A DNA stretch of 64,000 bases, taken from the NCBI GenBank assembly GCA_964654425.1, contig CAZZIN010000003.1, positions 1,812-65,811 on the forward strand. The letters run 5' to 3'. The notes under the pieces were generated by a model. It did no database searches, was not told the origin of the DNA, and saw nothing but the letters and a program-made list of their open reading frames with translations. A program made the translations under genes and the position numbers. Each line of letters starts with the position of its first letter. Within the stretch, counting starts at the first letter, position 1. The stretch comes from an uncultured Clavibacter sp. Lineage in GTDB: Bacteria; Actinomycetota; Actinomycetes; Nanopelagicales; Nanopelagicaceae. Below, piece by piece: positions 22,525 through 44,783 of the stretch.

Positions 22525-22528
22525 ATAC

Positions 22529-25099: not shown

Positions 25100-25101
25100 T
25101 A

Positions 25102-26550: not shown

Positions 26551-27389
26551 TGCGCCTTGATGTCATGAAGACTTACAAGCTCTATATCGGTGGAGCATTT
26601 CCAAGAAGTGAGTCGGGTCGCTCTTATCAATTGAAAGATAAGAAAGGCGTATTTGTCGCGAACCCAGCGCTGGCTTCCCGAAAAGACTTGAGGGAGGCAG
26701 TTGTTGCGGCTCGCGCGGCTTTCAACGGCTGGTCACACGCAACAGCATTCAATCGCGGTCAGATCCTTTATCGCATAGCCGAGATGATGGAGGGACGGAC
26801 TTCCCAATTCATCGCAGAGATTTCTGCATTGGAAGGTGTAAGTGAAGTTGCTGCACGAAAGCAAGTTGAGGCAGCAATTGATCTATGGGTTTGGTACGCC
26901 GGTTGGTGCGACAAAATTTCATCCGCAGCTGGTGGAACGAATCCGATTGCTGGTCCCTATTACAACTTCACAATACCTGAACCACTTGGCGTTGTCGGAA
27001 TCATCGCCGAAGAGAAGGACTCTCTTCTTGGCCTAACTAGAGGACTAGCTCCCGTTATCGCTGGCGGAAATACATCGGTCTTGATCGCGAGTGAATCTGC
27101 ACCTCTTCCTGCCATCACAGTAGCTGAAGTTCTTGCTACTAGTGATCTTCCTGGTGGTGTTGTAAACATCCTCACTGGAAAACGTTCTGAGTTACTCTCT
27201 TGGATTGCAGGGCACATGGAGATTGATGGATTAGATATCTCAGGTGCTGCAAAGTCACTTGATGGAGAAATCAAGCGAGCTGGAAGCGAGAATCTAAAGC
27301 GAATTCACCGGTTTGATAAGGATGTTTCGCCAGAACGGATGCTCTCCTTTATGGAGTACAAGACGGTCTGGCACCCAATTGGAATTTAG
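26550..27389 (+). CDS. aldehyde-dehydrogenase-like protein lacking the catalytic domain (279 aa)
   Basis: ALDH N-terminal/NAD-domain similarity (YKLYIGGAFPRS..., GVVGII..., PGGVVNILTG), but the catalytic-Cys segment is absent. The start ATG overlaps the upstream stop (TAATG). See the finding. Confidence 0.65.
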   Translation: MRLDVMKTYKLYIGGAFPRSESGRSYQLKDKKGVFVANPALASRKDLREAVVAARAAFNGWSHATAFNRGQILYRIAEMMEGRTSQFIAEISALEGVSEVAARKQVEAAIDLWVWYAGWCDKISSAAGGTNPIAGPYYNFTIPEPLGVVGIIAEEKDSLLGLTRGLAPVIAGGNTSVLIASESAPLPAITVAEVLATSDLPGGVVNILTGKRSELLSWIAGHMEIDGLDISGAAKSLDGEIKRAGSENLKRIHRFDKDVSPERMLSFMEYKTVWHPIGI

Positions 27390-27392
27390 GCT

Positions 27393-28328
27393 CTAGCGAA
27401 CTTGTGAGAGAAGCTCTTTAGCCTCATCGCGACTGGGGTAAGAAGATTGAGTTCCTTTTCTAGTAACGCTCAAAGAGGCGGAATTACAGCCAAGGCGGAC
27501 AGCATCTTCTGGTTTCAAACCCATCCCCAACCCAACTGCGAAGGCTCCAACGAAGGAATCTCCGGCGCCGGTCGTATCAATTGCAGTTACTTTTGGAGCA
27601 GGCACCCGGACCACATTCCAACTTTGATCTACATAAGCCGCCCCTTTCTCTCCAAGGGTGACTACTAACTTGCAACCGAGTTCTCGCGCAACTTCGGTAA
27701 TTACAGCATCGCTATCAGGGGCTCTACCTAACTTATCCAAACCAGAGAACTCAGTCTCATTTGGAATTATCCAATCCGCACTCTTCAGTAATTCCGATGT
27801 AAGCGGAGCAAATGGCGCTGGGTTAAGGATTGTGGTGATTCCGCGGGAGCGCGCAATAGCAAAAGCCGCTGCTGTTACTTCCTGATGAATTTCGAGTTGT
27901 CCGACCATGACATCAATTTCAGAAATTTCTGAGAGCGCGCTTTGCACTTGTGGAATGGTCATCGCAAAATTTGCCCCCGGAACACAGATGATGCGATTTG
28001 AGCCATCAGCTTCAACCCAAATTGGTGCAACTCCGCTTGCCCCAGGAACTCGGTTCACATAAGTGATGTCGATTCCTTGCTCTTCAAAATTCTTCAAGGT
28101 GGTATCCCCAAAGACATCATCGCCCAAGGTATTTATCATCTTCACCCGTGCTCCGAAGCGACTGGACATGACAGCTTGATTAGCACCCTTTCCACCGAAT
28201 CCAAGTGAAAATGAGTCGCCAATCACAGTTTCGCCTGAGTTGGGCGCCCGCTTTACGTAGGCGATCATGTCGATCATCGTGCTTCCTACAACGACTATCT
28301 CTGGGAGCTTTCCACCAAGCGCTGCCAC
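27393..28328 (-). CDS. rbsK: ribokinase (PfkB family)
   Basis: IVVVGSTMIDM, GGKGANQA, and C-terminal DTTGAGDSFVGAF. The ORF is open to 28421, but the GTG at 28328 (SD GAAAGGGG upstream) gives the canonical N-terminus. Confidence 0.8.
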   Translation of the reverse strand: MAALGGKLPEIVVVGSTMIDMIAYVKRAPNSGETVIGDSFSLGFGGKGANQAVMSSRFGARVKMINTLGDDVFGDTTLKNFEEQGIDITYVNRVPGASGVAPIWVEADGSNRIICVPGANFAMTIPQVQSALSEISEIDVMVGQLEIHQEVTAAAFAIARSRGITTILNPAPFAPLTSELLKSADWIIPNETEFSGLDKLGRAPDSDAVITEVARELGCKLVVTLGEKGAAYVDQSWNVVRVPAPKVTAIDTTGAGDSFVGAFAVGLGMGLKPEDAVRLGCNSASLSVTRKGTQSSYPSRDEAKELLSQVR

Positions 28329-28386
28329 TATTGCGAAACCCCTTTCGGCTGGGTCCCTGAGGTTCTGGACTAGAAGATACTCCAAG

Positions 28387-28399
28387 CGATAAGTTATCG
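28387..28399. promoter_or_regulatory. perfect palindrome CGATAA-G-TTATCG in the rbsK / bmp divergent region (candidate operator)
   Basis: Read directly. It lies 59 nt upstream of the proposed rbsK GTG and 154 nt upstream of the bmp ATG. Confidence 0.3.
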
Positions 28400-28552
28400 G
28401 AATTCCCCCTAAGAAGCTCAATCTGGATGCGGTTTAGAAGGAGGCCGGCTCCTGTGGCCCGACATGTCGTCACAGCGATACGAACTCTGCAAAACACATC
28501 TTCTTCTGAGCAACTAGTTCCGCAGTTCAACAACTACTAAGGAGATAACTGA

Positions 28553-29590
28553 ATGCAGAAGAAAACTCTTCGCAGGCTCGGTGCTTCAATTTTCGCAAGC
28601 GCAGTAGCGCTATCGGGATTGATGGCGATTGCTCCTGCTCAAGCAGCAACCAAGACAATTGGTATTGCTTATAGCTTGGGTGGACGCGATGTTCCGGGCT
28701 TCAACCAACTTGCCTATATCGGCGTCAAGCCAATATTGGATAAGAACAAGGCTCTAAAGCTGATCGAATCACAGGACAATCCAACCGCTACTGACGACCA
28801 GCGCGCAGAGCGTCTTCGCTTGATGGCGAAGCGCGGTGCGAATCCAATCGTTGTAGTTGGATTTACCTATGCTTCAGCGCTTGCAAAGGTCTCAAAGGAA
28901 TTCCCTAAAGTTCAATGGGGAATCGTGGATGACTCAAGCGTCCAGGCACCAAACGTTCAAGGCATCGTCTTCAAGGAAGAAGAAGGCTCATACCTTGTAG
29001 GTCTTGCTGCTGCTATGACCACAAAGACCGGACGTATCGGATTCATTGGTGGCGTAAATACTCCGCTCATCAAGAAGTTCGAAGCTGGATACATTGCTGG
29101 CGCAAAGGCAATCAATCCAAAGATCAAAGTCCAATCCACATACATCTCTAACTTCCCAGATTTCTCTGGCTTCAATGATCCTGCAAAGGGTTACGAAGCA
29201 GCGAAGGGTATGTACCAGAATGGCGCAGACGTCGTCTACGCCGCTGCTGGTGGAACTGGAACTGGTATGCACAAGGCTGCTTCAGAGTTGAAGAAGTGGT
29301 CAATCGGTGTTGATGCTGATGAGGCTCTCTTCCCAGCACACGCTGCATACAAGTCAACAATTCTTACTTCGATGTTGAAGCGAGTCGACCTTGGCGTTCG
29401 CGCCTTCGTAAATGACTCACTTGCTGGCAAGAAGACTGCAGGAATTCGTACCTGGGGCTTCAAGCAAGGTGGCGTTGGTTATACGACAACAGGTGGATAT
29501 CTCAAAGATATTACTGCTGTTATCGATAACTACGGCTCAGATATCGCTAGTGGCGAGGTAGTAGTACCAACCGATCCAACTAAGGCATAA
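28553..29590 (+). CDS. BMP-family (PnrA/Med-like) nucleoside ABC transporter substrate-binding protein
   Basis: Signal peptide ending AIAPAQA, GFIGG and VDAD-type BMP motifs, strong SD AAGGAG. Confidence 0.9.
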   Translation: MQKKTLRRLGASIFASAVALSGLMAIAPAQAATKTIGIAYSLGGRDVPGFNQLAYIGVKPILDKNKALKLIESQDNPTATDDQRAERLRLMAKRGANPIVVVGFTYASALAKVSKEFPKVQWGIVDDSSVQAPNVQGIVFKEEEGSYLVGLAAAMTTKTGRIGFIGGVNTPLIKKFEAGYIAGAKAINPKIKVQSTYISNFPDFSGFNDPAKGYEAAKGMYQNGADVVYAAAGGTGTGMHKAASELKKWSIGVDADEALFPAHAAYKSTILTSMLKRVDLGVRAFVNDSLAGKKTAGIRTWGFKQGGVGYTTTGGYLKDITAVIDNYGSDIASGEVVVPTDPTKA

Positions 29591-29610
29591 AGTAAGAGAA
29601 TGAAGTAAGC

Positions 29611-29641
29611 GAAGCGCGCCATGCTCAACATGGCGCGCTTC
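29611..29641 (+). promoter_or_regulatory. perfect 13-bp stem-loop between the SBP and ATPase genes (mRNA stabiliser or partial terminator)
   Basis: GAAGCGCGCCATG-ctcaa-CATGGCGCGCTTC, read directly. No U tract follows. Confidence 0.5.
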
Positions 29642-29669
29642 GTCTCATATTCGGCGTGAGTACAGGAGC

Positions 29670-31187
29670 GTGATGGATAACGTCCTTGAAGTCGTTGGTA
29701 TCGAGAAGAAATACCCAGGCGTCGTAGCAAATCGTGATGTCTCTTTAAAGGTAAAAACGGGTTCGATCCACGCGATTATTGGCGAAAACGGCGCTGGAAA
29801 ATCTACCTTGATGAAGATCCTCTACGGACTCATCCGCCCAGATTCCGGAAATATAAAGGCTTTTGGCAAAGATGTAACACTTAAGTCTCCCCAAGACGCA
29901 ATCGCGCTCGGGATTGGTATGGTCCATCAACATTTTAAGTTAGCCGACAATGCGACAGTCCTTGAAAATGTGATTCTTGGAAGTGAGCCCACTCGCATGG
30001 GCTTCATAATCAACTTCGATCAAGCTCGCAAAAAGTTAGTTGCGATTGCTGAGCATTATGGTCTTGATATCGACCCCGATGAATCCCTTGCGAATCTCGG
30101 CGTGGGCGAACGCCAGAGAGTTGAGATTGCCAAAGTCCTCTTTCGGGGAGCAAAAATCCTGATTCTCGATGAGCCAACTGCCGTTTTGGTTCCACAAGAA
30201 GTAGACGAACTCTTCACAAATCTTCGAGAACTCGTCAAGAAAGGACTCACAGTCCTTTTCATCTCTCATAAACTCGATGAAGTTCTTTCCATCGCAGATG
30301 AAATAACAATCATGCGGCAAGGAACGACCGTCGCTTCTCGCACACCTAAGAGCACTAACAAGGTTGAGTTGGCCGAGTTAATGGTCGGTGGAGAATTGCC
30401 TAAGCCAAGAGCTGGTGTAACTAAGTCAACGGTCGAGAGTTTGATTTCAATTAAGGGCGCTTCATATGTACGGCAAGATGGCCGACAGATTCTCAACAAT
30501 TTAAGCCTGGAACTGAAGGGCGCAGAGATTCTTGGGCTAGCTGGAGTTGAAGGTAATGGCCAAAGTGAATTAATTGAGCTGATTATGGGGCTGGTTAAAC
30601 CAAGCAGCGGCAGCGTTGAAATTCTTGGACTTGATGCAACTAAGACTCCAACCAAAGAAATAAGAAACGCCGGCGTCGCGTATATCCCCCAGGATCGACA
30701 ACGAGATGGCTTATTGATGTCAGCTCCACTTTGGGAGAATCGAGTTCTTGGTCACCAGTTCGCCTCACCAATGGCAACCAATATCTGGGTAAATAAGGGT
30801 GAAGCAATCTTGGACTCGAAACGAGTTGTAGATGAATTTGATGTACGAACTCCTGGAATAAATGTGCTTGCGAGCGCACTTTCGGGGGGAAACCAGCAGA
30901 AGTTCATCGTTGGGCGAGAATTAAGTGGAAACCCGAAAGTAATAGTTGCCGCCCAGCCAACTCGCGGAGTGGATGTGGGAGCACAAGCAATCATTTGGGA
31001 TCACCTAATGAAGGCTCGGACCGCGGGTGCTGGCATCCTGCTGATTTCGGCCGACCTTGATGAACTCTTCTCGCTATCGGACCGAATAGCAGTCATCTAC
31101 AACGGGGCAATTGTCTCGACTCTAAATCCAAATAAGACCACTCCAGAACAGCTAGGACTAGCTATGACAGGGGTGAAGAGCGCATGA
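29670..31187 (+). CDS. ABC transporter ATP-binding protein with duplicated NBD (nucleoside/sugar CUT2 type)
   Basis: Two Walker A / signature sets (GENGAGKST, LGVGERQR, ... LSGGNQQK), 505 aa. Confidence 0.9.
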   Translation: MMDNVLEVVGIEKKYPGVVANRDVSLKVKTGSIHAIIGENGAGKSTLMKILYGLIRPDSGNIKAFGKDVTLKSPQDAIALGIGMVHQHFKLADNATVLENVILGSEPTRMGFIINFDQARKKLVAIAEHYGLDIDPDESLANLGVGERQRVEIAKVLFRGAKILILDEPTAVLVPQEVDELFTNLRELVKKGLTVLFISHKLDEVLSIADEITIMRQGTTVASRTPKSTNKVELAELMVGGELPKPRAGVTKSTVESLISIKGASYVRQDGRQILNNLSLELKGAEILGLAGVEGNGQSELIELIMGLVKPSSGSVEILGLDATKTPTKEIRNAGVAYIPQDRQRDGLLMSAPLWENRVLGHQFASPMATNIWVNKGEAILDSKRVVDEFDVRTPGINVLASALSGGNQQKFIVGRELSGNPKVIVAAQPTRGVDVGAQAIIWDHLMKARTAGAGILLISADLDELFSLSDRIAVIYNGAIVSTLNPNKTTPEQLGLAMTGVKSA

Positions 31188-32269
31188 TGAAGAGCAAGAT
31201 CTTCTGGGGGATCGTCGCCCCAGTAGCTGCCATCCTCAACTCACTCCTATTTGTCTACATAATCCTCAAGATTCGTGGCGTCGATCCTTTATCTATGTTC
31301 AGTCTGATGATCTCTTATGGATTTGATCCAAGAAATCTTGTCTCAGAGCTAAATCAGACCGTGGCTTATTACATGGCCGGAGTAGCAGCTGCAATCGGTT
31401 TTAAGATGTTGCTATTCAATATTGGTATTGATGGCCAATACCGCATGGGTGCATTCTTTGGAGCGGTAGTTGGTGGAGCGATTGCGCTGCCTCCAGTTCT
31501 GCACGTCCTAGTGATAGTTATTACCGCCATGATTGCCGGCGGACTTTGGGCTGCAATTGCTGGTTACTTGAAAGTCCGTCGCGGGGTAAATGAAGTCATA
31601 AGCAACATCATGCTTAATTTCATCGCTGCGGCAATAATCTCTTATCTCATAACGCCTTCTATGTTAGGAACGCTTCCCGAAGGCTCTCAAAACGCACAGA
31701 CTTTCCCAATTCCGGCAAGTGGTCAGATGCCGACGATCAAAGCATTTGATGGCGAGATCTACACATTCCTTTTCGTGGCAATATTTGTAGGAATTGCATA
31801 TTGGGTAATGCTCAACAAAACAGTATTTGGCTTCAACTTAAAAGCGACTGGACTCTCCTTCAGAGCTGCTCGGGCAAGTGGAGTTAACGCGCCACGAATG
31901 ATCTTCGTAACGACCGTTCTTTCGGGAGCAATAGCTGGCCTTGTAGGTATGGGAACTCTGCTCTCCGATACTCACAACTTCAGTATGGCCTTCCCCTCTG
32001 GTTACGCATTCACAGGTTTGGCCCTCGCACTCTTGGGGCGCAATCATCCAATCGGAATCTTCTTTGCTGCGTTCTTATGGTCCTTCCTAGAGCGTTCCGC
32101 CCCCGTACTTGAATTCGAAGGAGTCCCGCCCGAGATTGTGATTGTTATGCAGGGAACAATCGTTCTTTCAATCGTGATCGCCTATGAAGTTGTCGCTCGA
32201 ATTAACTTGAGGCAACAGCAACGCGCAGTCGGAAACGTGAGCGCCGATGTGAAGGAGAGCAAGTCATGA
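31184..32269 (+). CDS. ABC transporter permease (BMP/nucleoside system)
   Basis: Polytopic membrane protein. ATGA overlap with the ATPase gene. Confidence 0.85.
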   Translation: MMKSKIFWGIVAPVAAILNSLLFVYIILKIRGVDPLSMFSLMISYGFDPRNLVSELNQTVAYYMAGVAAAIGFKMLLFNIGIDGQYRMGAFFGAVVGGAIALPPVLHVLVIVITAMIAGGLWAAIAGYLKVRRGVNEVISNIMLNFIAAAIISYLITPSMLGTLPEGSQNAQTFPIPASGQMPTIKAFDGEIYTFLFVAIFVGIAYWVMLNKTVFGFNLKATGLSFRAARASGVNAPRMIFVTTVLSGAIAGLVGMGTLLSDTHNFSMAFPSGYAFTGLALALLGRNHPIGIFFAAFLWSFLERSAPVLEFEGVPPEIVIVMQGTIVLSIVIAYEVVARINLRQQQRAVGNVSADVKESKS

Positions 32270-33513
32270 GTGGCAAGACCTCTTCTTCGATAAAGTCCGA
32301 AAAAGCAAAGTCTTTCTTTAAATCTCCAGCACGGATAACTATTTTGATAGCAATCGTTTTCTTCATAATTTCAATGGTCGAGAGCATCACGGGCTCGATT
32401 GATATTTCATCACCCGGTACATCAGGAGCAACGCTTCGATTCGCAATTCCGCTTTTAATGGCAGGACTTGGGGGGCTTTGGGCCGAGCGTGTTGGAGTTA
32501 TAAATATCGGTCTTGAGGGAATGATGATTGTCGGCACATGGACTGCTGCTTGGTTTGGTTACTTACATGGTCCTTGGGTGGGATTGTTGGCAGCTGCCAT
32601 ATTTGGTCTACTTTCTGGGTTATTCCATGCAATCTTGACGGTAAAGATCGGTATCGATCAAGCAGTTAGTGGCCTTGCCATTAATCTGATTGCGGCGGGT
32701 GCGGCGCGCTATCTCTCCGGAATCTTCTTCCCAGCAGTCGGCGGCGATAGAACTGTCTCTCCCCCAGTCGAGACACTTCCTTCTTTCACAGTCCCGATTG
32801 TTGCGCCGTTCTTCCAGAGTATCGATGAGAAAAATATCTTCTTAGTCTCCAATATTTCTGGATTGATCTATGGGCTCACATCAGATCTATCGGTAGTGAC
32901 TGTTGGACTTCTGCTATTCGTACCATTGACGTCATGGATCTTGTGGCGAAGTAAATTCGGATTACGTATGCGTTTTTCAGGTGAGAATCCAATGGCCGCA
33001 GAGTCACTTGGCATCAACGTCTATATGACGCGCTACATTGCAATATCTGTTTCGGGAATGCTTGCCTCACTCGGTGGTGCATATCTAGCGCTGGTAGCTT
33101 CATCGGTCTATCGAGAAGGCCAAACCGCAGGACGCGGTTTTATTGGTCTAGCTACCGTCATCTTCGGAAATTGGCGACCAAGTGGAGTCTTTGCTGGATC
33201 TATTCTCTTTGGATTCACAGATGCGCTTCGAGTTCGCCAGAGTGATTCAGTGATGGCGATGATCATGGCAGCTGGAATTCTCGCTGGGCTATTAAGCCTT
33301 TATTACGCCTTCTCTCGTAAATGGAAGCCATGCGCGGTATCGGGTGGACTTGCTCTCTTTGCACTCTGGATGAACTTAAGAGTCACCAATATTCCGCAAG
33401 AATTCATAACAGCTTTCCCAAATCTTGCTACCTTGATTGTTCTTACCTTCCTCGCGCAACGGCTTACTCCGCCAGCCATGGCGGGCATGCCGTATCGACG
33501 AGGGTCTGAGTAG
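32266..33513 (+). CDS. ABC transporter permease (BMP/nucleoside system), second subunit
   Basis: Polytopic membrane protein. ATGA overlap with the preceding permease. Confidence 0.85.
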   Translation: MSGKTSSSIKSEKAKSFFKSPARITILIAIVFFIISMVESITGSIDISSPGTSGATLRFAIPLLMAGLGGLWAERVGVINIGLEGMMIVGTWTAAWFGYLHGPWVGLLAAAIFGLLSGLFHAILTVKIGIDQAVSGLAINLIAAGAARYLSGIFFPAVGGDRTVSPPVETLPSFTVPIVAPFFQSIDEKNIFLVSNISGLIYGLTSDLSVVTVGLLLFVPLTSWILWRSKFGLRMRFSGENPMAAESLGINVYMTRYIAISVSGMLASLGGAYLALVASSVYREGQTAGRGFIGLATVIFGNWRPSGVFAGSILFGFTDALRVRQSDSVMAMIMAAGILAGLLSLYYAFSRKWKPCAVSGGLALFALWMNLRVTNIPQEFITAFPNLATLIVLTFLAQRLTPPAMAGMPYRRGSE

Positions 33514-33525
33514 TTTTTTAATCTC

Positions 33526-34518
33526 TTGAACTCCGTCCGCTGGAACTCTCCCGTGCTCTCGAGCCTGAGGCCGGTAATTGAGCAATCTACTTTGGTTCGA
33601 ATCAACAAAGAGCAATTGATTCAAGTAGCAAATTGGATGGCTTACGAGGAGTTTGCCAAACCCGATGGCTCTATGCTCTTTGACTTTGGAGATGATCCAG
33701 ATCAATTGATGGACTTCACGATGGTTGTTAATACTATGAACTTCGCTTTTACCGACTTCAAAACCGGTATCAAATTTGAAACGGATTACCTAGGTCGAAG
33801 ATGGTGCGACAGCGAGGCGATGCTTGCCTGCATTCATCGCGCAATAAATGCTGAGACACCGCTATTTAATGGTGATTATCTTGCAAACCTGACAGAAGAG
33901 GAATTTGCCCGAGTATTCAAGGGCACCATCGAGATGCCCATGATTTCGGAGCGCGTGAAGATATTCAACGAGGTTGGTAAAGTGCTTGTAGAAAAGTACA
34001 ACGGCAGTTATCACAATTTTGTGAAATCCTGTCCACCCCGTCTCTATTCAAACGGCGAAGGTCTGCTCGAGCGTCTAGTGATCGAATTCCCACGCTTTCA
34101 AGATGTCAGCCAATACAAGGGCTCCTCAATTCAAATCTACAAGCTCGCTCAGCTTGGAATTTGGGGTATGCATTTGACTCTCTCACCACGGGGGCATTGG
34201 AAGTTAGAAGATGCCAGTGATCTAACTGCATTTGCCGATTACATCGTTCCAGTGGGACTCCGAGTGATGGGAATCTTCGAATACGCTCCGGAATTAGAGG
34301 AAAGGATAAATGCCCTCGAAGAGATAAAGCGGGATAGCGAGGCGGAGATTGAATTGAGAGCCAGCTCAATTCATGCGATTGCGCTTCTTACAGAAGAGAT
34401 AAATAAACGCCGACCAGGCCTTGAGCCGCTCTTAATGCCTCAAGTAGATTTCAGATTTTGGAAGAGTTATCACGCTACCCATTGGCCTCACCATTTAACG
34501 CGAACCATCATGTACTAG
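33526..34518 (+). CDS. queuosine-salvage family protein (DUF2419 / Qng1-like nucleotide N-glycosylase)
   Basis: Colinear similarity to eukaryotic QNG1 recalled from memory: [51 protein letters not shown] and C-terminal [9 protein letters not shown]. TTG start 13 nt after the permease stop; the exact start is uncertain. Confidence 0.8.
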   Translation: [330 protein letters not shown]

Positions 34519-34972
34519 AAACAGAAAGCTCCGAACGCCACTTTCTCAAAGTAGGTAGCGCTTTTTCAAAAGTATCGACTACTTCGCCCACATCTTCAAC
34601 GCAACCCCTTACAAAGAGATTAATCCCTTTACCATCGATCATGTTGCGATCTCGGATCACTCGAGTATCCGTTACTAATCCAATGATTCCTTTCTTGGTT
34701 GAGTCGGTTTGCATCGCAGCCCAGAAGATTCCAATCTCAGAGGCAGTTCCATCATCAACCATCGGACCATCGAGAAGCGCCAATACGGCATTAGCACGCA
34801 ATACTTCTTTTGAATCAACATCAAATATAAATCTTGCTGTGACTGGATTTGGAAGCTCGATTTCGTGTGGAACAAAGACTTCAAAGCCTTCAGCTCTCAG
34901 CTTTGCAGCGCACGTATCGATAAAACTTCTTTCGTATGGAGTGAAGAGTGGTCCCGCAAAATAAATCCGCAT
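34508..34972 (-). CDS. nucleoside 2-deoxyribosyltransferase family protein (NDT / nucleotide N-glycosidase-like)
   Basis: MRIYFAGPLF N-terminus and DDGTASEIG (catalytic Glu context), 154 aa. SD AGGAG lies 9 nt upstream. Confidence 0.75.
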   Translation of the reverse strand: MRIYFAGPLFTPYERSFIDTCAAKLRAEGFEVFVPHEIELPNPVTARFIFDVDSKEVLRANAVLALLDGPMVDDGTASEIGIFWAAMQTDSTKKGIIGLVTDTRVIRDRNMIDGKGINLFVRGCVEDVGEVVDTFEKALPTLRKWRSELSVSST

Positions 34973-35020
34973 CTTGAGAAACTCCTAGTTTGTGTTGGAC
35001 GAGAGTATGCCTCTCAAGAT
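34971..35020 (-). promoter_or_regulatory. 9-bp perfect inverted repeat (ATCTTGAGA ... TCTCAAGAT, 32-nt spacer) covering the NDT start codon, with an alternative local hairpin at 35001-35015
   Basis: Read directly. The SD (34982-34986) lies in the loop, and the 3' arm includes the AU of the AUG. Confidence 0.35.
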
Positions 35021-35064
35021 AGGTTAAAGCAATCAACTTCTCCTTACTTTAGAAATGAGGCTAA

Positions 35065-36252
35065 TTGCTTGGGTCCTATCGGGAGGTAATTCGGCATAGT
35101 CACGCCGCACCGACCTTTGGATTCGGAATGATTGGCAGAATCCCAGTAGCGATGAATACTGTCGCGCTAGTCTTTTTAGTCTCATCTGTACGTGACTCCT
35201 TTCTTCTCGCCGGAATTGCATCATCTTTCTACACGCTTTCCGGAGCGATAGCTGGACCTCGAATCGGCAAACTTGCCGATCGCCACGGCACAAGAGTCGT
35301 TTTAATTCCCATCTCGGTCATAAATGCATTATCAATTCTTGCAATCCTTTTTTTCAGCGAGCGGTCTGTTCCGCTGCTACTACTTTTCTCAGCACTTGCG
35401 GGTGCAACCATGCCTGGATTTGGAAGTTACACACGTACCCGCTGGAGCCGAACAATTTCCGATAAGAAAGACCTTGACACCGCGCTCTCCCTTGAATCAG
35501 TCTTTGATGAAACTGCATTTGTAATAGGTCCCGCCCTGGCTGGCTTTCTCTTCTCACTTTATGGCTCTAATTCACCACTTCTCGCTGGCGTTGTTTTTAC
35601 TGTTATAGGAGCGCTCGGGCTTGCAATCACATCATTTGATCATGGTGGCCAAGGTCAACATGAAGAAGTGCATGGAGGTCTCCTGCGAATCCCCCAGATA
35701 AAGAGTCTGCTCGCTTCACTCGTTGCGATGGGGCTTCTCTTTGGCTCAAACTTTGTCGTAATACTCGCAGTCGCAAAAGAGTACGGCCGGGCAGCAGAAG
35801 GCGGATTGTGGGTCGGTCTCTATCCACTTGGCAGCATAGTTGCTGGCCTTCTCTATGGATTCATCCATTGGAAGTCGAGCAACGCCATTAGATACACGTT
35901 TGCACTCGGATTCATGACTTTAGCTACAAGCTCAATTTTGGTTTTCCAAGATATAGATACTCTTGTTTTTCTTCTTGTGCTGTCAGGAGTTGCAATTGCC
36001 CCAGCTCTAATCGCAGCAAATGCACTTATGAAAGAGTTAGTACCGCTACGAAGACTAACCGAGGCCTTTGCTCTTGTTGGCGCTGCCCTCTCAATTGGCA
36101 TAACACTTGGAAGCAGCCTTAGTGGGTTAATAGTTGACGAATTTGGCGGTTGGAGCGGTTTCTACTTCATGACTGGTGCCATGATCCTCGCTACTTTTCT
36201 CTCTATGCTATTAATCAAATCTGATGATGTAGGTGAAAGAATAGGCAGATGA
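35065..36252 (+). CDS. MFS transporter (TTG start preceded by a GAGG SD)
   Basis: About 12 TM segments, with a G-x-x-A-D-R-x-G-T-R loop (GPRIGKLADRHGTR) typical of MFS loop 2-3. Confidence 0.8.
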   Translation: MLGSYREVIRHSHAAPTFGFGMIGRIPVAMNTVALVFLVSSVRDSFLLAGIASSFYTLSGAIAGPRIGKLADRHGTRVVLIPISVINALSILAILFFSERSVPLLLLFSALAGATMPGFGSYTRTRWSRTISDKKDLDTALSLESVFDETAFVIGPALAGFLFSLYGSNSPLLAGVVFTVIGALGLAITSFDHGGQGQHEEVHGGLLRIPQIKSLLASLVAMGLLFGSNFVVILAVAKEYGRAAEGGLWVGLYPLGSIVAGLLYGFIHWKSSNAIRYTFALGFMTLATSSILVFQDIDTLVFLLVLSGVAIAPALIAANALMKELVPLRRLTEAFALVGAALSIGITLGSSLSGLIVDEFGGWSGFYFMTGAMILATFLSMLLIKSDDVGERIGR

Positions 36253-37184
36253 CCAGAAAAGTAATCTTCGATACCGACCCGGGGATTGATGATGCACTTG
36301 CTCTGCTCTTCCTCGCGGTCTCTCCTGAAATCGAATTGTTGGGAGTTACTGTCACGCATGGAAATACTTCGCAAGATAAGTGTCTTCGAAACGCTCTGAG
36401 TCTCGTCGAGCTAGCTGGTATCCCAAAGATTGATGTCTCCCAGGGAGCCTTTGAGCCTTTAGTAAAAGAGTTGTCTGTAGCTGAAGAGACTCATGGTGAT
36501 GGTGGACTTGGATACGCGGTTCTGCCTATTGCAAAGAAATTGCCAATCGATATTCCTGCATATGACTTCATCATCAGAGAAGTTGAGAAGTACCCGGGCG
36601 AGGTAACGGTTCTTGCCGTAGGCCCGATGACAAATGTCGCTCTTGCGCTCTTAAAACGCCCGGAAATCGCCCCAAAGATCCACTCAATAATCGCTATGGG
36701 CGGAGCGATTCACTATCCGGGTAATGCAACTCCGCAAGCAGAGTACAACGTCTTTTGTGATCCAGAAGCCTTCGATATCGTGCTCCGCTCAGGAATTGAT
36801 TTCACACTAGTTCCGTTAGATGTAACTTACAAATGTATTTTTACCAAAAGGCACATCGAAGCAATTAATAGAGCTCGCCCTGAAATCAAGGAATTCATAG
36901 CTGATTCCACTCGCTTCTACATGGAGTTCCATGTGAAGCATCAATCTATTGAGGGCTGTGCGATAAACGATCCGCTTGCGGCCGCGCTACTTATTGATCC
37001 ATCGCTAGTTAAGTATGAGGACTACTTTGTTCGAGTCGATCTAACGGGGCCGACTTCTAAGGCAAAGACGATTGCTGACTATTACGGAGCTTTGAAACAG
37101 AAGGCGAATGCACATGTCGCAATGGAGGTTGAGGTTGAACGCTTCATGAAATTATTTATCGAGCGAATGAATCGATTCCAGTAA
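36249..37184 (+). CDS. nucleoside hydrolase (IUNH family)
   Basis: VIFDTDPGIDDALAL aspartate cluster, 311 aa. ATGA overlap with the MFS gene. Confidence 0.9.
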   Translation: MTRKVIFDTDPGIDDALALLFLAVSPEIELLGVTVTHGNTSQDKCLRNALSLVELAGIPKIDVSQGAFEPLVKELSVAEETHGDGGLGYAVLPIAKKLPIDIPAYDFIIREVEKYPGEVTVLAVGPMTNVALALLKRPEIAPKIHSIIAMGGAIHYPGNATPQAEYNVFCDPEAFDIVLRSGIDFTLVPLDVTYKCIFTKRHIEAINRARPEIKEFIADSTRFYMEFHVKHQSIEGCAINDPLAAALLIDPSLVKYEDYFVRVDLTGPTSKAKTIADYYGALKQKANAHVAMEVEVERFMKLFIERMNRFQ

Positions 37185-37912
37185 TGAAGCAGCACCACAC
37201 TCATACTTCTACGGGTGATGTGGGCAGATATGTATTGATGCCCGGAGACCCGGGTCGAGTACCGATTATTGCGGCACATCTAGACGAAGCCACGCATGTG
37301 GCCACGAACCGAGAATACGTGACCTACACAGGAACCCTTGAAGGAATTAAAGTCTCCGTAACTTCTACCGGGATTGGTTGTCCATCGAGTGCTATAGCAG
37401 TTGAAGAGTTATTTCGCTCCGGCGCCGACACTTTTATAAGAGTTGGGACTTCTGGGGGAATCCAACCTGGTACTAAATCAAATGAAATCGCTATTGCAAC
37501 CGGAGCAATCCGCCATGAAGGAACTTCGCTTCACTACATCCCAATCGAATTTCCCGCAGTCTGCGACTTTGAAGTAGTGAGAAGCATGAGAGCCGCCCTT
37601 GAAAAGTTGGGGCTACCTCATCGTGTCGGTATTTCACATTCAAAAGACTCCTTCTATGGCGAGGTGGAACCAGAACGCTCCGCAAACTCGGATGAGTTGA
37701 TTGAATATTGGCGGGCTTGGCGTGAGGGTGGCGCTATCTGTTCGGAGATGGAACTCTCTACCATTTGTATCGTCGCGCAGCTCTTAGGTGCAAGGGCTGG
37801 CGGAATCATGGCGATGCATGGTGAAGGGGAATTCGGACCACTGGATAATTTGATCAAAGCAGCTATCGAATCGGTTCGAGAATTAATAAAGATTGATAAA
37901 TCTAAGGAGTGA
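37184..37912 (+). CDS. uridine phosphorylase-like nucleoside phosphorylase (PNP/UDP-1 family), paralog A
   Basis: VLMPGDPGRV, SVTSTGIGCPSSAIAVEEL, FIRVGTSGG and EMELST motifs parallel E. coli Udp. Confidence 0.85.
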   Translation: MKQHHTHTSTGDVGRYVLMPGDPGRVPIIAAHLDEATHVATNREYVTYTGTLEGIKVSVTSTGIGCPSSAIAVEELFRSGADTFIRVGTSGGIQPGTKSNEIAIATGAIRHEGTSLHYIPIEFPAVCDFEVVRSMRAALEKLGLPHRVGISHSKDSFYGEVEPERSANSDELIEYWRAWREGGAICSEMELSTICIVAQLLGARAGGIMAMHGEGEFGPLDNLIKAAIESVRELIKIDKSKE

Positions 37913-38670
37913 TGATGGAGACAGACGGGAAGCAGTATCACATCCAACTTAAGCGCGGTGATGTCGGAAAATATGTCCTTCTGCCTGGAGACCCCGGTAG
38001 ATGCGAACCCATCTCTCGACTCTTTGATAATCCCAAACATATTGCTACCAATCGCGAATACGTCACTTATACCGGAACGCTTGATGGAGTACCGGTCTCG
38101 GTAACTTCAACTGGTATTGGTTGCCCGTCAGCTGCGATTGCATTAGAGGAATTAGTTCGTTGCGGAGCTGACACTTTTATAAGAGTTGGTACTTCTGGTC
38201 ATATCCAACGCGATATAAAGTCGGGCGAGTTGGCAATAATCACTGCCGCAATCCGTGATGAGGGAACTTCTCGCCAGTACATGCCCATTGAATTCCCTGC
38301 TATCGCAGATATCGATCTAGTGTTAGCGCTCCAGGCTTCTGCCAAGAAGACGGGCGCAACTTTCAGAACCGGTATCACCCAATCAAAAGATTCTTTCTAT
38401 GGTCAGCATGAACCTGAGCGGATGGGTGTTGCGAAAGATTTGCTGGAGAGATGGCGGGCTTGGGAATTGGGCGGCGCGCTCTGTTCTGAGATGGAGGCTG
38501 CTGCACTATTCGTGATTGCCTCAATGCTACGAGTACGTGCGGGTGGTGTGATGATGGTTCACGGCAAAGAGCCGATGCCACTACTTGATATCTTGCTGGA
38601 GACCGCTGTAGGTGGGCTGCGCGAGATTATTGCCGTAGACAAAGCAAAGGGGCGCCCAGTTACTTTGTAA
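37909..38670 (+). CDS. uridine phosphorylase-like nucleoside phosphorylase (PNP/UDP-1 family), paralog B
   Basis: Same motif set (VLLPGDPGRC, SVTSTGIGCPSAAIALEEL, FIRVGTSGH, EMEAAA). 4-bp overlap with paralog A. Confidence 0.85.
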   Translation: MMMETDGKQYHIQLKRGDVGKYVLLPGDPGRCEPISRLFDNPKHIATNREYVTYTGTLDGVPVSVTSTGIGCPSAAIALEELVRCGADTFIRVGTSGHIQRDIKSGELAIITAAIRDEGTSRQYMPIEFPAIADIDLVLALQASAKKTGATFRTGITQSKDSFYGQHEPERMGVAKDLLERWRAWELGGALCSEMEAAALFVIASMLRVRAGGVMMVHGKEPMPLLDILLETAVGGLREIIAVDKAKGRPVTL

Positions 38671-39601
38671 TCGAAGCCTTTTCGATCGCTTCCAGCATCA
38701 TGCTCCAGAAGCGCTCAAAATCTAACTCAAGAGCGACTTCACAATTCGCCTTCTCTCCAAGCCGATTATGAAGATCAACCACGGTTGCACCCCTTGTAAG
38801 TGAACCGGTGAGTTCTACCTGAACATTTACTTTCCTAGTCTTAACCACGCTGCGATCGATAAGTAGTGCGACCGCGACTGGATCATGAAGCGGTGGGTCG
38901 GGCATCTCAAATACTTCATCATAAGTTTTGGCAAAGAACTTCAATAATCCAATGATGGTCTTACTCACATCCGTACCCATACTCGCTAGCCGATTGAATA
39001 TCTCTTTAGTTACCAATGCTTGATGGGTAACATCCAAACCACACATTGTTAACGGTAAATCACTTCTAAGTACGACATCAGCCGCTTCTGGATCCATCCA
39101 GATATTGAATTCAGCATAAGGTGTTTTATTACCCCTGCCAGCGCTCCCACCCATGAAAACGATTTCATTTACTTTATTCTTAAGGTGCGGATACATCTTT
39201 AGGAAAAGCGCGACATTTGTTAGCGGGCCAGTCGCAACAATCGTAACTTTTTCCGAGGACTCCCTTAGCAGCTTTGCAATCAAGTCCACCGCGTGCAGCG
39301 GGGATAGTGCGATCTTTGGTTCTGGGAGTTCTGCGCCATCTAGAGCAGATTCGCCATGGATATCGGTCGCCTCATCTACTTCTCCCAAAATCGATTTCCC
39401 TGCACCTTCAGCAATCGGCAAATCAAGGTTTGCTAGTGTTGCAACTCTTCGGGCGTTTAGAGTTACTTTCCCTATTCCTCCATTACCTGAAACAGTGGTG
39501 ATTCCGAGTAGATGAAGTGCAGGATTATGCGCGGCAAGAATTATTGCAAGCGCATCATCATGTCCCGGATCGCAATCAAGAATTATTGGAGTTGGTGTCA
39601 T
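38660..39601 (-). CDS. nucleoside hydrolase (IUNH family), second copy
   Basis: IILDCDPGHDDALAI aspartate cluster, 313 aa. Confidence 0.9.
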   Translation of the reverse strand: MTPTPIILDCDPGHDDALAIILAAHNPALHLLGITTVSGNGGIGKVTLNARRVATLANLDLPIAEGAGKSILGEVDEATDIHGESALDGAELPEPKIALSPLHAVDLIAKLLRESSEKVTIVATGPLTNVALFLKMYPHLKNKVNEIVFMGGSAGRGNKTPYAEFNIWMDPEAADVVLRSDLPLTMCGLDVTHQALVTKEIFNRLASMGTDVSKTIIGLLKFFAKTYDEVFEMPDPPLHDPVAVALLIDRSVVKTRKVNVQVELTGSLTRGATVVDLHNRLGEKANCEVALELDFERFWSMMLEAIEKASITK

Positions 39602-39611
39602 AGCGTTAAGC

Positions 39612-40787
39612 CTAAGCCTTAACCATCACACGCTTATAGCCACGTAATGAGAATGCCGGGCGTCGTTCCGGCTCTTGGGCGAGGTCTAAATTGGGAAAAC
39701 GCTGGATGAGCAAGGGCAGTGAAATTGACATCTCTAGCCTTGCAAGTGGGGCTCCGACACAGAAGTGAATGCCAGCACCAAATCCGATATGCGGATTTGG
39801 TTGACGCGAAACATCGAATTCGTCCGCTTTTGCAAAAACAGTTTTGTCACGATTTGCCGAACCCAGCAAACTTACGATTTTCTGGCCTTGCTTGATACTT
39901 ATTCCTCCGATTTCGCATTCGGTTATTGCAGTTCGCTCAAAGTATTGCAGAGGCGAGTCGAAGCGAAGAAATTCTTCGACAGCGCTAGCAGAGAGAGTTA
40001 ATGGTTCACCAAATAATTTTGCTCGCTCCTCTTCGTTGCGAAGTAGCGCCACCATCCCATTTCCAAACCCATTGACGCTAGCCTCATGGCCAGCGTTTAA
40101 TAAGAGGATGCAAGTTGCAATCAACTCGTTTGTGGAGAGCTTTTCCCCTTCTTCATGCACTTGAGATAAGTCGGTAATCAAATCTTCTCTTGGCTCATTT
40201 TTCCGCTCTAACATCAGGGAGTGCACATAATCTGCAAATTCGGTCGCCGCTTTCTGGGCCGCCAGTTGATGCTCTCTAGGAGGATTTACTTCATACATCT
40301 TCACAATGGCTTGAGACCAAGGTCGAAGGAGATGCTCATCTTCTGGTGGAAATCCGAGTAAAAGCGCAATAACTTTTACTGGAAGTGGCTCGGCATAATC
40401 CGCAATCAAATCGAAATTGCCACCCTTTTTTGCAATCTCATCCAATAGTCCGGATGCAATCTCCTCTACTTTAGAGCGCATCCCCTCCATTCGACTTCGA
40501 TTGAATGCTTTGAGAACAAGACCTCGAAGTCGAGTGTGTTTCGGAGGTTCGCTATCTAGAATCGAATCTGAGTGAAGCCAATTAAAAACACCCCATTCTG
40601 ATTCAGGTTTCTTATCAATATAGATTCTCCCCAAATTCTTATTGCGCAGTACTTCATTTGCATCTCGATGTGTAGCCGCAAGATATACATTCAATTCAGG
40701 GTGCCAGACCGGTTTATCGAGTTTTCGTAACTCCTGAAGATGCGGATAGGGATTACTTATGACCTCAGAATCTCGAAAATCAATCAT
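39612..40787 (-). CDS. cytochrome P450
   Basis: Heme-ligand loop FGAGIHFCVGAPLAR, ExxR (EEFLR), I-helix LLLNAGHEASVNG, 391 aa. Confidence 0.9.
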   Translation of the reverse strand: MIDFRDSEVISNPYPHLQELRKLDKPVWHPELNVYLAATHRDANEVLRNKNLGRIYIDKKPESEWGVFNWLHSDSILDSEPPKHTRLRGLVLKAFNRSRMEGMRSKVEEIASGLLDEIAKKGGNFDLIADYAEPLPVKVIALLLGFPPEDEHLLRPWSQAIVKMYEVNPPREHQLAAQKAATEFADYVHSLMLERKNEPREDLITDLSQVHEEGEKLSTNELIATCILLLNAGHEASVNGFGNGMVALLRNEEERAKLFGEPLTLSASAVEEFLRFDSPLQYFERTAITECEIGGISIKQGQKIVSLLGSANRDKTVFAKADEFDVSRQPNPHIGFGAGIHFCVGAPLARLEMSISLPLLIQRFPNLDLAQEPERRPAFSLRGYKRVMVKA

Positions 40788-40818: not shown

Positions 40819-41823
40819 TTAACCAAATGCGGCCGAAAGTGCCTTTGCATTCATCTCCTTGATGACATCTTCTCCCCATCCGTGTGCACCAGACATATGA
40901 AAATACTCCGCTGAAAGCGATGTCGAGCTCATTAATCGATTATCGGTATTGAGCGCAACATTAAAGCCAAGTCGATGCAAAAGTGATGCCGGATGCTCAT
41001 TGTAATTTTTAGCTAGACCAGTCTGTAAGTTGGAAGTTGGCGCCATCTCTATATGTACCTGCGAATCTCTTAGGAACTTTGCGCGATCTGAGAGAAAGAC
41101 TGACCCTTCTTTGATCACAATCTCGTCAATTAATCGATAGCCATGCCCTATTCGCTTTGCTTTGAACTCACTTATCGCTTCTTCTATGTATTCAAAAGGT
41201 CCGGCTTCACCTGCGTGGATAGTAAATGGGAAATCTGCATTGATTAAGAGTTTGAAAGCGGCACGATGATTTGCGGCCGGAAAACCCCGCTCTGGGCCAG
41301 CGATATCAAACCCTACGACACCCTTATCGCGATACTTGAGCGCTTCGGTCGCCACCTCCAAACTTCTATTTTCATGTCGCATTGCACAGAGAATTGCTCG
41401 AACTTCTATTTCGCCTCCGGATGAGCGGACACTCTGCATTCCCTCTTCATATCCAAGAAGAGTAGCTTCGATTACGCCCGAGATACTCAAACCGCCTCGA
41501 GTAAACAATTCGGGAGCCCCACGAACTTCTGCATATCTGATCCCGTCTTTTGCAAGATCTTCTACACATTCACGAGCAATCCGAATTATGTGATCCCGAG
41601 TTTGCATAGCAGCGATCGTGTAATCAAAGTTCTTAAGATACTTTTCTAGATTCCCCTCATTGCAGGCTTCAAAGATGCTTTCTTGAAGCTCTTCTGGTTC
41701 AAAGGAAGGTAACTCAATTCCAATTTCCTTCGCAATATCGATGAGAGTGTTGGTCCTTAAGCCACCATCTAAGTGATCGTGCAGAAGCGTTTTCGGTAAG
41801 GACCTGATTTGAGCAAGATCCAC
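40819..41823 (-). CDS. add: adenosine deaminase
   Basis: LPKTLLHDHLDGGLR, HAGE, and SLNTDN-like (ALNTDNRL) motifs. Confidence 0.9.
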   Translation of the reverse strand: MDLAQIRSLPKTLLHDHLDGGLRTNTLIDIAKEIGIELPSFEPEELQESIFEACNEGNLEKYLKNFDYTIAAMQTRDHIIRIARECVEDLAKDGIRYAEVRGAPELFTRGGLSISGVIEATLLGYEEGMQSVRSSGGEIEVRAILCAMRHENRSLEVATEALKYRDKGVVGFDIAGPERGFPAANHRAAFKLLINADFPFTIHAGEAGPFEYIEEAISEFKAKRIGHGYRLIDEIVIKEGSVFLSDRAKFLRDSQVHIEMAPTSNLQTGLAKNYNEHPASLLHRLGFNVALNTDNRLMSSTSLSAEYFHMSGAHGWGEDVIKEMNAKALSAAFG

Positions 41824-41836: not shown

Positions 41837-42223
41837 TTAGAGGTTCTCAGGTCCGAATGCCCAAGGCAAAAGCGACGAGAGTGGCGCAGGGCCTTCTGGG
41901 GTCATGAACTGGGTATCAGGTGTGCTGTGTTCCCAGAGAAGTTGGCGACAACGACCACACGGGGAAAGCGCATTTCCATTCGCATCCACACAGTAAATCG
42001 CTCTAATGATGGATCGACCACCAAGTACCAAGTTGGAAACTAGACCGCACTCTGCGCAGAGTCCGAGACCGTAACTCGCATTCTCGACATTACATCCAGT
42101 AACTATCCGACCATCATCGGTCTTGGCTGCTACTCCTACAGGGAATTTTGAGTATGGTGCATATGCCCGCTTCATAGCGCTAATTGCTTCTGTTCTAAGT
42201 TGATCCCAATCGATGTTTGCCAT
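41837..42223 (-). CDS. cdd: cytidine deaminase (homotetrameric type)
   Basis: CAECG and PCGRCRQ zinc motifs, 128 aa. Confidence 0.9.
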   Translation of the reverse strand: MANIDWDQLRTEAISAMKRAYAPYSKFPVGVAAKTDDGRIVTGCNVENASYGLGLCAECGLVSNLVLGGRSIIRAIYCVDANGNALSPCGRCRQLLWEHSTPDTQFMTPEGPAPLSSLLPWAFGPENL

Positions 42224-44634: not shown

Positions 44635-44766
44635 CGGCTAAGGGTAGCCGAGCAGCAAGAAACCTGGCGAAGACCCCTTCCCTCACGCTCACCTCTCGCA
44701 TAATCTTCGCCCGTTCCCCGCAAAACCTTGCTTCATCCAACGGACCGTCGGGCACGTACCTGCCCG
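44635..44766. promoter_or_regulatory. GC-rich divergent intergenic region with three hairpins (possible structured leader or small RNA)
   Basis: The hairpins are CGGCTA-AGGG-TAGCCG (44635-44650), GGCGAAGA-30 nt pyrimidine-rich loop-TCTTCGCC (44666-44711) and CGGGCA-CGTACC-TGCCCG (44749-44766), all read directly. Confidence 0.3.
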
Positions 44767-44783
44767 GAGAAGGAAGAGAAAAA

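Follow-up and report, generated by a model that had tools for sequence, protein, structure and literature searches.

A Qng1-Family Gene with an Apparently Rebuilt Specificity Pocket behind a Bmp-Type Importer in acI-Lineage Actinobacteria

Introduction

Qng1, the best described enzyme of the DUF2419 family, is a hydrolase that prefers queuosine 5'-monophosphate (Q-5'MP) and is inactive on AMP, UMP, CMP and GMP; neither the Sphaerobacter thermophilus enzyme (StQng1) nor its human counterpart (HsQNG1, C9orf64) acts on tRNA (PMC9881137). Across the databases, genes of this family are annotated as "queuosine salvage" or as "queuosine 5'-phosphate N-glycosylase". Here we describe a family member encoded on the plus strand at positions 33526-34518 of a 64-kb stretch of actinobacterial DNA (contig CAZZIN010000003.1), which we refer to as the window. 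The gene stands at the end of what is very probably a single operon with a Bmp-type ATP-binding cassette (ABC) importer, and, as judged by alignment with the characterised enzymes, its product has lost the residues on which the specificity of Qng1 for queuosine phosphate depends.

The proximity of the two kinds of gene has been recorded before. In a 2024 survey of transporters encoded near queuosine (Q) salvage genes, Table S2 places PF02608 and PF02653 in physical clusters with Qng1, and the row for PF02653 comprises 35 sequences (69% de novo Q makers, 23% without Tgt and 6% predicted direct queuine salvagers); the PF02608/PF02653 candidates were tabulated there without being prioritised, tested or discussed (PMC11130926). 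An earlier reading of the window, made from its sequence only, had regarded a link between a bacterial Qng1 and a BMP importer as new, and this claim is partly pre-empted by that table. The family, and the tabulated but undiscussed gene arrangement, are already known. What appears to be new is the existence of a widespread clade, set apart from canonical Qng1, in which the specificity pocket, the proton relay and the phosphate site are all rebuilt, and also, it appears, the way in which its genes in two phyla are consistently embedded among genes for ribokinase, an MFS transporter and enzymes that cleave nucleosides. Our literature search returned no paper on a non-canonical DUF2419 clade, nor one on queuosine in Nanopelagicales or Limnocylindria.

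The window has a GC content of 47.6%, and the proteins most similar to its own (75-87% identity) are from metagenome bins that bear the names Candidatus Nanopelagicaceae or Planktophila, that is, from the acI lineage, in agreement with the actinobacterial origin given in the sequence-only reading.

Family Membership and Fold

The open reading frame (ORF) is 330 aa long, begins with TTG, and was confirmed to be present in the window. The match to Pfam PF10343 (Q_salvage/DUF2419) takes in positions 6-285 of the 285 in the profile, with an E value of 9e-60 and a score of 203 bits (cutoff 25), and the alignments with the StQng1 chains 7u07 and 7uk3 (E 1e-42) and with human QNG1 (7ugk; E 3e-29) extend over the whole protein. 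An AlphaFold2 (AF2) model of the protein (pLDDT 88.7, pTM 0.88) has the two-lobe helix-hairpin-helix (HhH) fold, and Foldseek superposes it on the Qng1 structures 7u07, 7u1o and 7u91 with TM values of 0.85-0.89, and on human 7ugk with values of 0.83-0.86. The gene is a genuine relative of the queuosine-salvage enzyme Qng1; here the sequence-only reading, which had assigned it to this family and had looked to a superposition on the published structures, was right. Two of the three blocks which that reading had matched to the human protein, one of 25 letters and FADYRLPQ, are present in the HMMER alignment, while the third, the C-terminal block, falls outside the aligned region; the C-terminal Tyr itself is present.

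The fold is that of the HhH DNA glycosylases, and one might consider that the protein is not a small-molecule nucleosidase at all, but a glycosylase that acts on nucleic acids, a protein with a binding or regulatory role, or a relic without activity. However, the DNA glycosylases (NTHL1, AGOG and MagIII) appear only as distant Foldseek matches (E > 0.01), and the features associated with a free nucleoside, namely the C-terminal Tyr carboxylate arrangement, E267, H316, K199 and F75/Y232 (StQng1 numbering), are invariant in the group of sequences to which the protein belongs, every one of which is full length (85/85; see below). The operon context of importer and sugar/nucleoside enzymes also speaks against this alternative, as does the inactivity of StQng1 and HsQNG1 on tRNA (PMC9881137), and we consider it very improbable.

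Active-Site Residues

Residue roles were taken from the structural study of Qng1 (PMC9881137) and were mapped onto the window protein by pairwise and multiple alignments; StQng1 residues are given below in parentheses. The residues of catalysis are kept, these being the nucleophile D238 (D231), which lies in the FADY motif, and the HhH lysine K206 (K199). The ribose contacts F75 and Y239 (Y232) are also kept, as is N72. The guanine edge would be recognised by D308 (D298), W312 (W302) and L210 (the aliphatic position 203), all of which are kept and are invariant in the clade. At the C-terminus, the Tyr carboxylate arrangement is retained, with Y330 accompanied by E274 (E267) and H323 (H316). 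Tags placed at this end of Qng1 inactivate it.

The surroundings of the 7-substituent and of the phosphate are quite different. The aromatic pocket for the cyclopentenediol is replaced throughout (W48 to G48, H53 to D53, Y93 to S96, W94 to E97 and W299 to F309), and only P46 is kept. The D69-N72-D207 proton relay is not intact, as N72 is kept, D69 becomes N69 and D207 becomes G214. In the 5'-phosphate pocket, K233 is replaced by I240 and R80 by Lys, and the region of Q306 is ambiguous (H or K). The alignments are free of gaps around positions 69, 93/94, 207 and 233, which are flanked by invariant residues (at the relay, the NF.F and YK.AQ anchors). In the characterised enzyme, the relay contacts the secondary amine of Q, and alanine substitution of D69, D207 and K233 compromised Q salvage (PMC9881137).

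Of the catalytic Asp and the queuine pocket, both of which the sequence-only reading had expected, the Asp is therefore found as D238 and the pocket is replaced, with G, D, S and E in the positions of its aromatic residues. The implicit equation with characterised Qng1 is likewise not supported, since D69, D207 and K233 are N, G and I, and the aromatic pocket is gone, not only in this protein but clade-wide.

A Separate Clade within the Family

A family search of 1.84 billion proteins gave 2302 matches at E values up to 0.001. From these, 100 full-length representatives were aligned together with canonical sequences and genome-derived relatives, and the resulting neighbour-joining tree has three groups. 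The group that contains the window protein, which we call clade C, stands apart from the canonical group that contains StQng1. The groups can be told by their residues at positions 48/53/69/93/94/207/233, which read W-H-D-Y-W-D-K in the canonical group, W-F-N-A-F-M-x in a large second group, and G-D-N-S-E-G-I in clade C.

Ten positions (K199, L203, F75, D231, Y232, E267, D298, W302, H316 and the C-terminal Tyr, in StQng1 numbering) are invariant in the 85 clade-C sequences. As for the replacements, I233 is present in all 85 sequences, S93 in 82, D53 in 75, E94 in 70 and G48 in 66; position 94 is Leu in Acidimicrobiia, position 207 is occupied by small residues, and position 69 is N, T, A, S or G. 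Because the replacements are conserved across the clade and the catalytic core is invariant, we regard them as a fixed alternative design rather than as decay. Clade C occurs in Nanopelagicales, in Limnocylindria, and in Acidimicrobiia that live in fresh water or are associated with sponges; its Actinomycetota are both freshwater and marine.

Three proteins of the DUF2419 family at large (P0124, P0229 and P0154) are domain fusions, namely a GNAT acetyltransferase-DUF2419 protein (500 aa), an S-adenosylmethionine methyltransferase-DUF2419 protein (544 aa), and a DUF2419 fragment joined to a cytidine-deaminase domain. Such fusions hint at further functional diversity.

Operon Structure

The importer is complete within one operon, which comprises a PF02608 binding protein, a duplicated ATPase and two PF02653 permeases (Table 1). 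Including the DUF2419 gene, the gaps in gene order are 79, -4, -4 and 12 nt. No terminator-like site is found in the 12-nt gap between permease 2 and the DUF2419 gene, which is too short for one. In relatives, an ATG is located one codon 3' of the position of the window's TTG, and either abuts the stop codon of the permease or lies 8-14 nt past it. The common strand, the short gap, the lack of a terminator, the kept adjacency and the start that abuts the permease stop codon in relatives all argue for a single operon, and the importer and the DUF2419 gene are very probably co-transcribed. On this point of operon linkage to a Bmp-type importer, the sequence-only reading holds up well.

The PDB matches of the Bmp protein include 7x0r (3.6e-42) and TmpC/PnrA (2fqw; 2.4e-33), as well as BmpA and BmpD. 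Homology to the purine-nucleoside binders PnrA, BmpA and BmpD suggests that its ligand would be a nucleoside.

As for regulatory elements, no preQ1 or purine riboswitch is found upstream of the operon (27300-36400, at E values up to 1). At gathering score, the whole window has no riboswitch, and the exception is an unrelated msiK RNA motif (44723-44782, plus strand; Rfam RF01747, 62.8 bits, E 5e-13), which lies directly 5' of the gene for an MsiK/UgpC-like ABC ATPase (44784-45863). A search for operator-like inverted repeats common to two intergenic regions gave only a weak palindrome at 28506-28525.

Proposed Function

We infer catalytic activity, a nucleoside rather than a nucleotide substrate, the nature of the base and the fate of the products as follows. 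The conserved core indicates that the protein is very probably an active N-glycosidase that acts on a free guanine-like ribonucleoside or nucleotide. Of these two, the nucleoside is somewhat the more probable substrate, as the phosphate-binding Lys is replaced by an invariant Ile, ribokinase is a constant partner, even at those Limnocylindria loci with nothing but a phosphorylase and RbsK alongside, and the gene is coupled to a nucleoside importer. Since the aromatic pocket and the Asp pair for the amine are both gone, recognition of queuosine in the canonical manner seems improbable, and we think it rather unlikely that queuosine itself would be the substrate. The interpretation that we prefer, and to which we give about even chances, is that the ORF encodes a nucleoside hydrolase of altered specificity which serves a nucleoside-scavenging island, and not a canonical queuosine-5'-phosphate hydrolase.

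In such a system, the DUF2419 gene would be transcribed with the PnrA/Bmp-type nucleoside ABC importer, and would probably be translationally coupled to it. The enzyme would cleave an imported ribonucleoside whose Watson-Crick edge resembles that of guanine, and would act on the nucleoside rather than on the 5'-monophosphate. Its substrate would most likely be a 7-substituted or 7-deaza guanosine that is beyond the reach of the island's IUNH hydrolases and phosphorylases. The freed ribose would pass to the adjacent ribokinase, and the freed base would be salvaged, or expelled via the linked MFS transporter. The new Asp and Glu residues in the pocket would fit a different 7-substituent; they would also fit leaving-group activation at N7 of a true purine, an idea that comes from the mechanisms of purine N-glycosidases.

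A number of points weigh against this interpretation. The residue roles are carried over from a homologue at 30-35% identity, and the pocket loop (residues 41-60) of the AF2 model has a pLDDT of only 63-78. One basic residue of the phosphate site persists (R80, as Lys) and the alignment at Q306 is ambiguous, which is compatible with a nucleotide substrate. For a plain guanosine hydrolase, a pocket so widened and polar (W to G, Y to S) would be surprising. The presence of RbsK is also explained by the IUNH hydrolases in the same island. Finally, a divergent QPTR-family gene stands directly downstream in 10 of 24 Limnocylindria loci, and points to queuosine-precursor metabolism rather than to bulk catabolism.

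Gene Neighbourhoods in Relatives

A scan of one genome per GTDB species gave at least 588 relatives, the best 80 of which are mainly from Nanopelagicales, Acidimicrobiia (including the sponge-associated Spongiisociaceae) and the Chloroflexota class Limnocylindria. Related loci were taken with 10-kb flanks and searched by tblastn, using the proteins of the window's island. In Nanopelagicales-like loci, the order is RbsK (minus strand) / Bmp-ABC-permease-permease-DUF2419 / NDT-family gene / MFS-IUNH and two uridine-phosphorylase-like genes, and 32 of the 33 informative loci have a permease gene directly before DUF2419. In Acidimicrobiia, the order is RbsK (minus strand) / Bmp-ABC-permease-permease-DUF2419-MFS-IUNH, with a permease upstream in 9 and MFS downstream in 10 of 13 loci. 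The Limnocylindria loci have no Bmp importer; RbsK (minus strand) is upstream in 15 of 24, and the downstream gene encodes a QPTR-like protein in 10 and an MFS protein in 9. In this class, an ECF A/A'/T module is often found within a few kb of the clade-C gene, and some loci have only a phosphorylase and RbsK beside it. One Limnocylindria bin (JBCLDV01) carries two clade-C copies (L020 and L047).

Ribokinase is the most constant neighbour of clade C across phyla, and adjoins it in three lineages. Homologues of the window's MFS gene directly follow DUF2419 in Acidimicrobiia and in some Limnocylindria. A close relative (80% identity) has the same island by Pfam calls, plus a LacI-type regulator. 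The canonical Qng1 genes are isolated in Nitrolancea and Sphaerobacter; one genome has its copy beside genes for adenosine deaminase and an MFS protein, and a Bipolaricaulia bin (L089) has it immediately upstream of TGT.

The QPTR-like genes of Limnocylindria belong to the QPTR/Vut_1 family and begin approximately 10-20 nt 3' of DUF2419 (L005-L014; for example, the pair at 9998-11584 in L012, of which 11009-11584 is the QPTR-like gene). Their product is divergent (PF02592, 52 bits; TIGR00697, 48.6 bits, below the cutoff of 50.95; 24% identity to E. coli YhhQ). This neighbour keeps alive a reading in which the enzyme would hydrolyse 7-deazaguanine nucleosides other than Q, that is, preQ0-, preQ1- or archaeosine-type ribosides derived from foreign tRNA or from 7-deazaguanine-modified phage DNA. 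The freed base would join the pool imported by QPTR-type transporters, and would feed a preQ1-type Tgt/QueA. The E. coli YhhQ-type transporters carry preQ0 and preQ1, and the transporter encoded beside an Acidobacteriota qng1 carried preQ0/preQ1 and not Q, which was reported as a surprise (PMC11130926). Table S3 of the same survey gives ruvCAB-queA-tgt-yajC-secDF in a freshwater Acidimicrobiia genome, a preQ1-type route that is consistent with this reading (PMC11130926). The active site is likewise compatible, having lost the cyclopentenediol pocket and the amine-holding Asp pair and gained polar and acidic residues. However, the amine to which the lost Asp pair binds is present in preQ1 as well, the QPTR-like protein is below the TIGR00697 cutoff, and the vicinity showed no queF, tgt or preQ1 riboswitch. 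We consider this reading unlikely on balance, and we hold just as tentatively its extension to the whole of clade C, as a new activity of non-Q 7-deazaguanine nucleoside hydrolases whose importer differs by lineage (a Bmp-type ABC system in Actinomycetota, and a QPTR-like or MFS transporter in Limnocylindria).

Queuosine-Pathway Genes

Three queries (Tgt and QueA of E. coli, and a Tgt from Bipolaricaulia) were run by tblastn against the 64 kb of the window and against 84 related loci with their 10-kb flanks; none had a match, and no queF was seen near the clade-C loci. Some ORFs at 50-63 kb of the window have sizes that would fit a ruv-tgt-sec cluster, but these are guaB, guaA, pcrA and sucCD. 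The PfkB kinase at 27393-28421 was likewise considered as a missing queuosine kinase and was ruled out, as it scores above the cutoff on the ribokinase equivalog TIGR02152 (308 bits).

These results bear on an alternative in which the protein does hydrolyse queuosine or Q-5'-phosphate, with a pocket built in another way: the Bmp importer would bring in queuosine, queuine would be freed, and a Tgt encoded elsewhere would insert it into tRNA. The protein does belong to the family and has its conserved catalytic core, canonical members can adjoin TGT (as in L089), and a QPTR-like transporter follows the Limnocylindria orthologue. In addition, 7-deazapurine nucleosides resist ordinary nucleosidases, which would explain why a streamlined genome retains an enzyme dedicated to them. 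All members characterised so far act on Q or Q-5'MP (PMC9881137). Yet D69, D207, K233 and the aromatic cyclopentenediol pocket are all replaced, the 84 loci have no tgt within 10 kb, and only the 6% mentioned above are predicted direct queuine salvagers among genomes with BPD_transp_2 beside Qng1 (PMC11130926). The queA-tgt genes of the freshwater Acidimicrobiia genome also tell against it, being of a preQ1-type route (PMC11130926). We therefore judge such a role to be unlikely.

The sequence-only reading had offered two explanations, namely a route of import and hydrolysis that feeds queuosine or 7-deazapurine nucleosides to a Tgt, and recruitment of Qng1 for scavenged modified nucleosides. 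Recruitment fits the local evidence better, given the ribokinase island and the lack of a nearby tgt, while the QPTR-like neighbours preserve a link to 7-deazaguanines.

The Surrounding Island

The DUF2419 ORF sits within an island for nucleoside uptake and catabolism, as can be seen from the flanking importer, RbsK, DeoC, PGM-family mutase, IUNH hydrolases, phosphorylases and deaminases (Table 1). The NDT, IUNH and phosphorylase genes that the sequence-only reading had placed after DUF2419 are all present, although the NDT-family gene and the second IUNH gene are on the minus strand, and an MFS transporter had been omitted.

Table 1. Genes of the importer operon and of the surrounding island, with their positions in the window.
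Feature	Position	Strand	Evidence and remarks
PGM-family phosphomutase, DeoC, aldehyde dehydrogenase, short Aldedh-like ORF	22529..27389	+	Pentose end of island; same genes in relatives' island
Ribokinase RbsK	27393..28421	-	Divergent from importer operon; TIGR02152 308 bits (cutoff 299.65)
Bmp/PnrA-like substrate-binding lipoprotein	28553..29590	+	Operon gene 1; AGGAG Shine-Dalgarno; PF02608 E 7e-54
Duplicated ABC ATPase, two ABC_tran domains	29670..31187	+	PF00005, 2 stretches; CUT2-type relatives RbsA/MglA/AraG
Permease 1, BPD_transp_2	31184..32269	+	PF02653 E 9e-35
Permease 2, BPD_transp_2	32266..33513	+	PF02653 E 1.5e-32; stop codon 12 nt before DUF2419 start
Qng1-family putative N-glycosidase (clade C DUF2419)	33526..34518	+	Last gene of importer operon; PF10343, StQng1 match, AF2 model
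Nucleoside 2-deoxyribosyltransferase (NDT)-family gene	34508..34972	-	PF05014 E 1.5e-17; convergent with DUF2419, 11-nt overlap
MFS transporter (MFS_1/MFS_3)	35065..36252	+	PF07690 E 3e-33
IUNH-family nucleoside hydrolase, RihA-like	36249..37184	+	PF01156 E 1e-93; NCBIfam RihA 253 bits, below cutoff
Uridine-phosphorylase-like PNP_UDP_1 paralogue a	37184..37912	+	PF01048; TIGR01718 245 bits (cutoff 280)
Uridine-phosphorylase-like PNP_UDP_1 paralogue b	37909..38670	+	PF01048; TIGR01718 276 bits (cutoff 280)
Second IUNH nucleoside hydrolase, UriH/RihA-like	38660..39601	-	PF01156 E 3e-103; NCBIfam UriH 356 bits, below cutoff
Cytochrome P450 inside island	39612..40787	-	PF00067
Adenosine deaminase	40819..41823	-	PF00962
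Cytidine deaminase	41837..42223	-	PF00383

The NDT-family gene adjoins DUF2419 in 31 acI loci, on the same strand in 20 and on the opposite strand in 11, its orientation being flipped among lineages. Beyond it in the window, the MFS, IUNH and two uridine-phosphorylase-like genes form a separate plus-strand unit. A homologue of the P450 (~34% identity) is found beside clade-C DUF2419 in Limnocylindria (L016-L024).

At the other edge of the island, genes for a Maf-like nucleotide pyrophosphatase, an AIG2/GGACT-like protein and the PGM-family mutase precede DeoC (21446-24154, plus strand). Maf enzymes act on modified nucleotides, and would fit an island that handles modified nucleosides. The short Aldedh-like ORF (26493-27389, plus strand; 298 aa) covers only the N-terminal half of the profile and follows the full-length Aldedh gene; since the same pair (481 aa and 279 aa) is kept in relatives, it is not a local pseudogene.

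Farther along the window, tandem IMPDH-family genes, one with a full match (60096-61217) and one with a partial match (58984-60096), are followed by GMP synthase (57431-61217 overall, minus strand), so that the genome is able to turn salvaged IMP into GMP. Next to these, a MerR-family regulator is fused to B12-binding domains (61243-62214, minus strand), an architecture like that of CarH/LitR, which suggests a light- or cobalamin-responsive regulator.

Significance

Clade C is a large, separate clade without the specificity residues of Qng1, and the transfer of function by annotation is for this reason unsafe for some of the most abundant lake bacteria. All Nanopelagicus are without de novo purine synthesis, and the abundant Planktophila are without the oxidative pentose-phosphate pathway and have a distinct RbsK (PMC12817590). 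Because these genomes are streamlined, and some are purine auxotrophs or are without the oxidative pentose-phosphate pathway, any gene retained in their nucleoside-scavenging island probably counts for growth, and for the composition of media in which to cultivate them. Identification of the substrate would bring to light either a new chemistry of nucleoside hydrolysis on an HhH fold, or the first evidence of exchange of queuosine-family compounds in freshwater plankton, along with the ligand of the Bmp importer. If non-Q 7-deazaguanine nucleosides were the substrates, the most abundant freshwater bacterioplankton would gain an unrecognised route that feeds a canonical preQ1-type Tgt, and queuosine precursors would be a traded micronutrient in lakes.

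Comparison with Known Systems

Compared with StQng1 and human C9orf64, the window protein has the same Pfam family, fold, catalytic Asp, HhH Lys, F75/Y232, D298/W302, and C-terminal Tyr with E267/H316. It differs from them in its sequence (30-35% identity), in falling in a separate clade, and in the changes to its 7-substituent pocket, its proton relay and its site for the phosphate. Its neighbours in the genome also differ, as canonical Qng1 genes are adjacent to TGT or isolated, whereas those of clade C are accompanied by a nucleoside importer, ribokinase, IUNH hydrolases and phosphorylases.

The Clostridioides difficile pair of QueK and ECF-QrtT has a similar logic, in which a nucleoside hydrolase that frees a modified base is coupled to a transporter. 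In the 2024 survey, QueK is given as an IUNH-family queuosine hydrolase that supplies the queuine lyase QueL and, through it, Tgt (PMC11130926). Its fold is unrelated to that of Qng1, although the window's island has IUNH genes of its own, and no queuine-lyase or Tgt genes were seen near the window locus.

The importer has the same architecture as those of the PnrA/TmpC type (T. pallidum PnrA, Borrelia BmpA/BmpD), with a homologous binding protein (E 1e-33 to 1e-42). The guanosine transporter NupNOPQ of B. subtilis is also of this type. These importers are not known to be followed by a DUF2419 gene, whereas that of the window has one after it.

Finally, the island can be compared with the nucleoside-salvage clusters of actinobacteria, for which we take Rv3307-Rv3315 of Mycobacterium tuberculosis (add, cdd, deoA/deoD, pmmB and deoC) to be an example. 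It has in common with such clusters the adenosine and cytidine deaminases, the PGM-family mutase, DeoC and the phosphorylases, and adds to these the Bmp importer, DUF2419, the NDT-family gene, the MFS transporter, two IUNH hydrolases and the P450.

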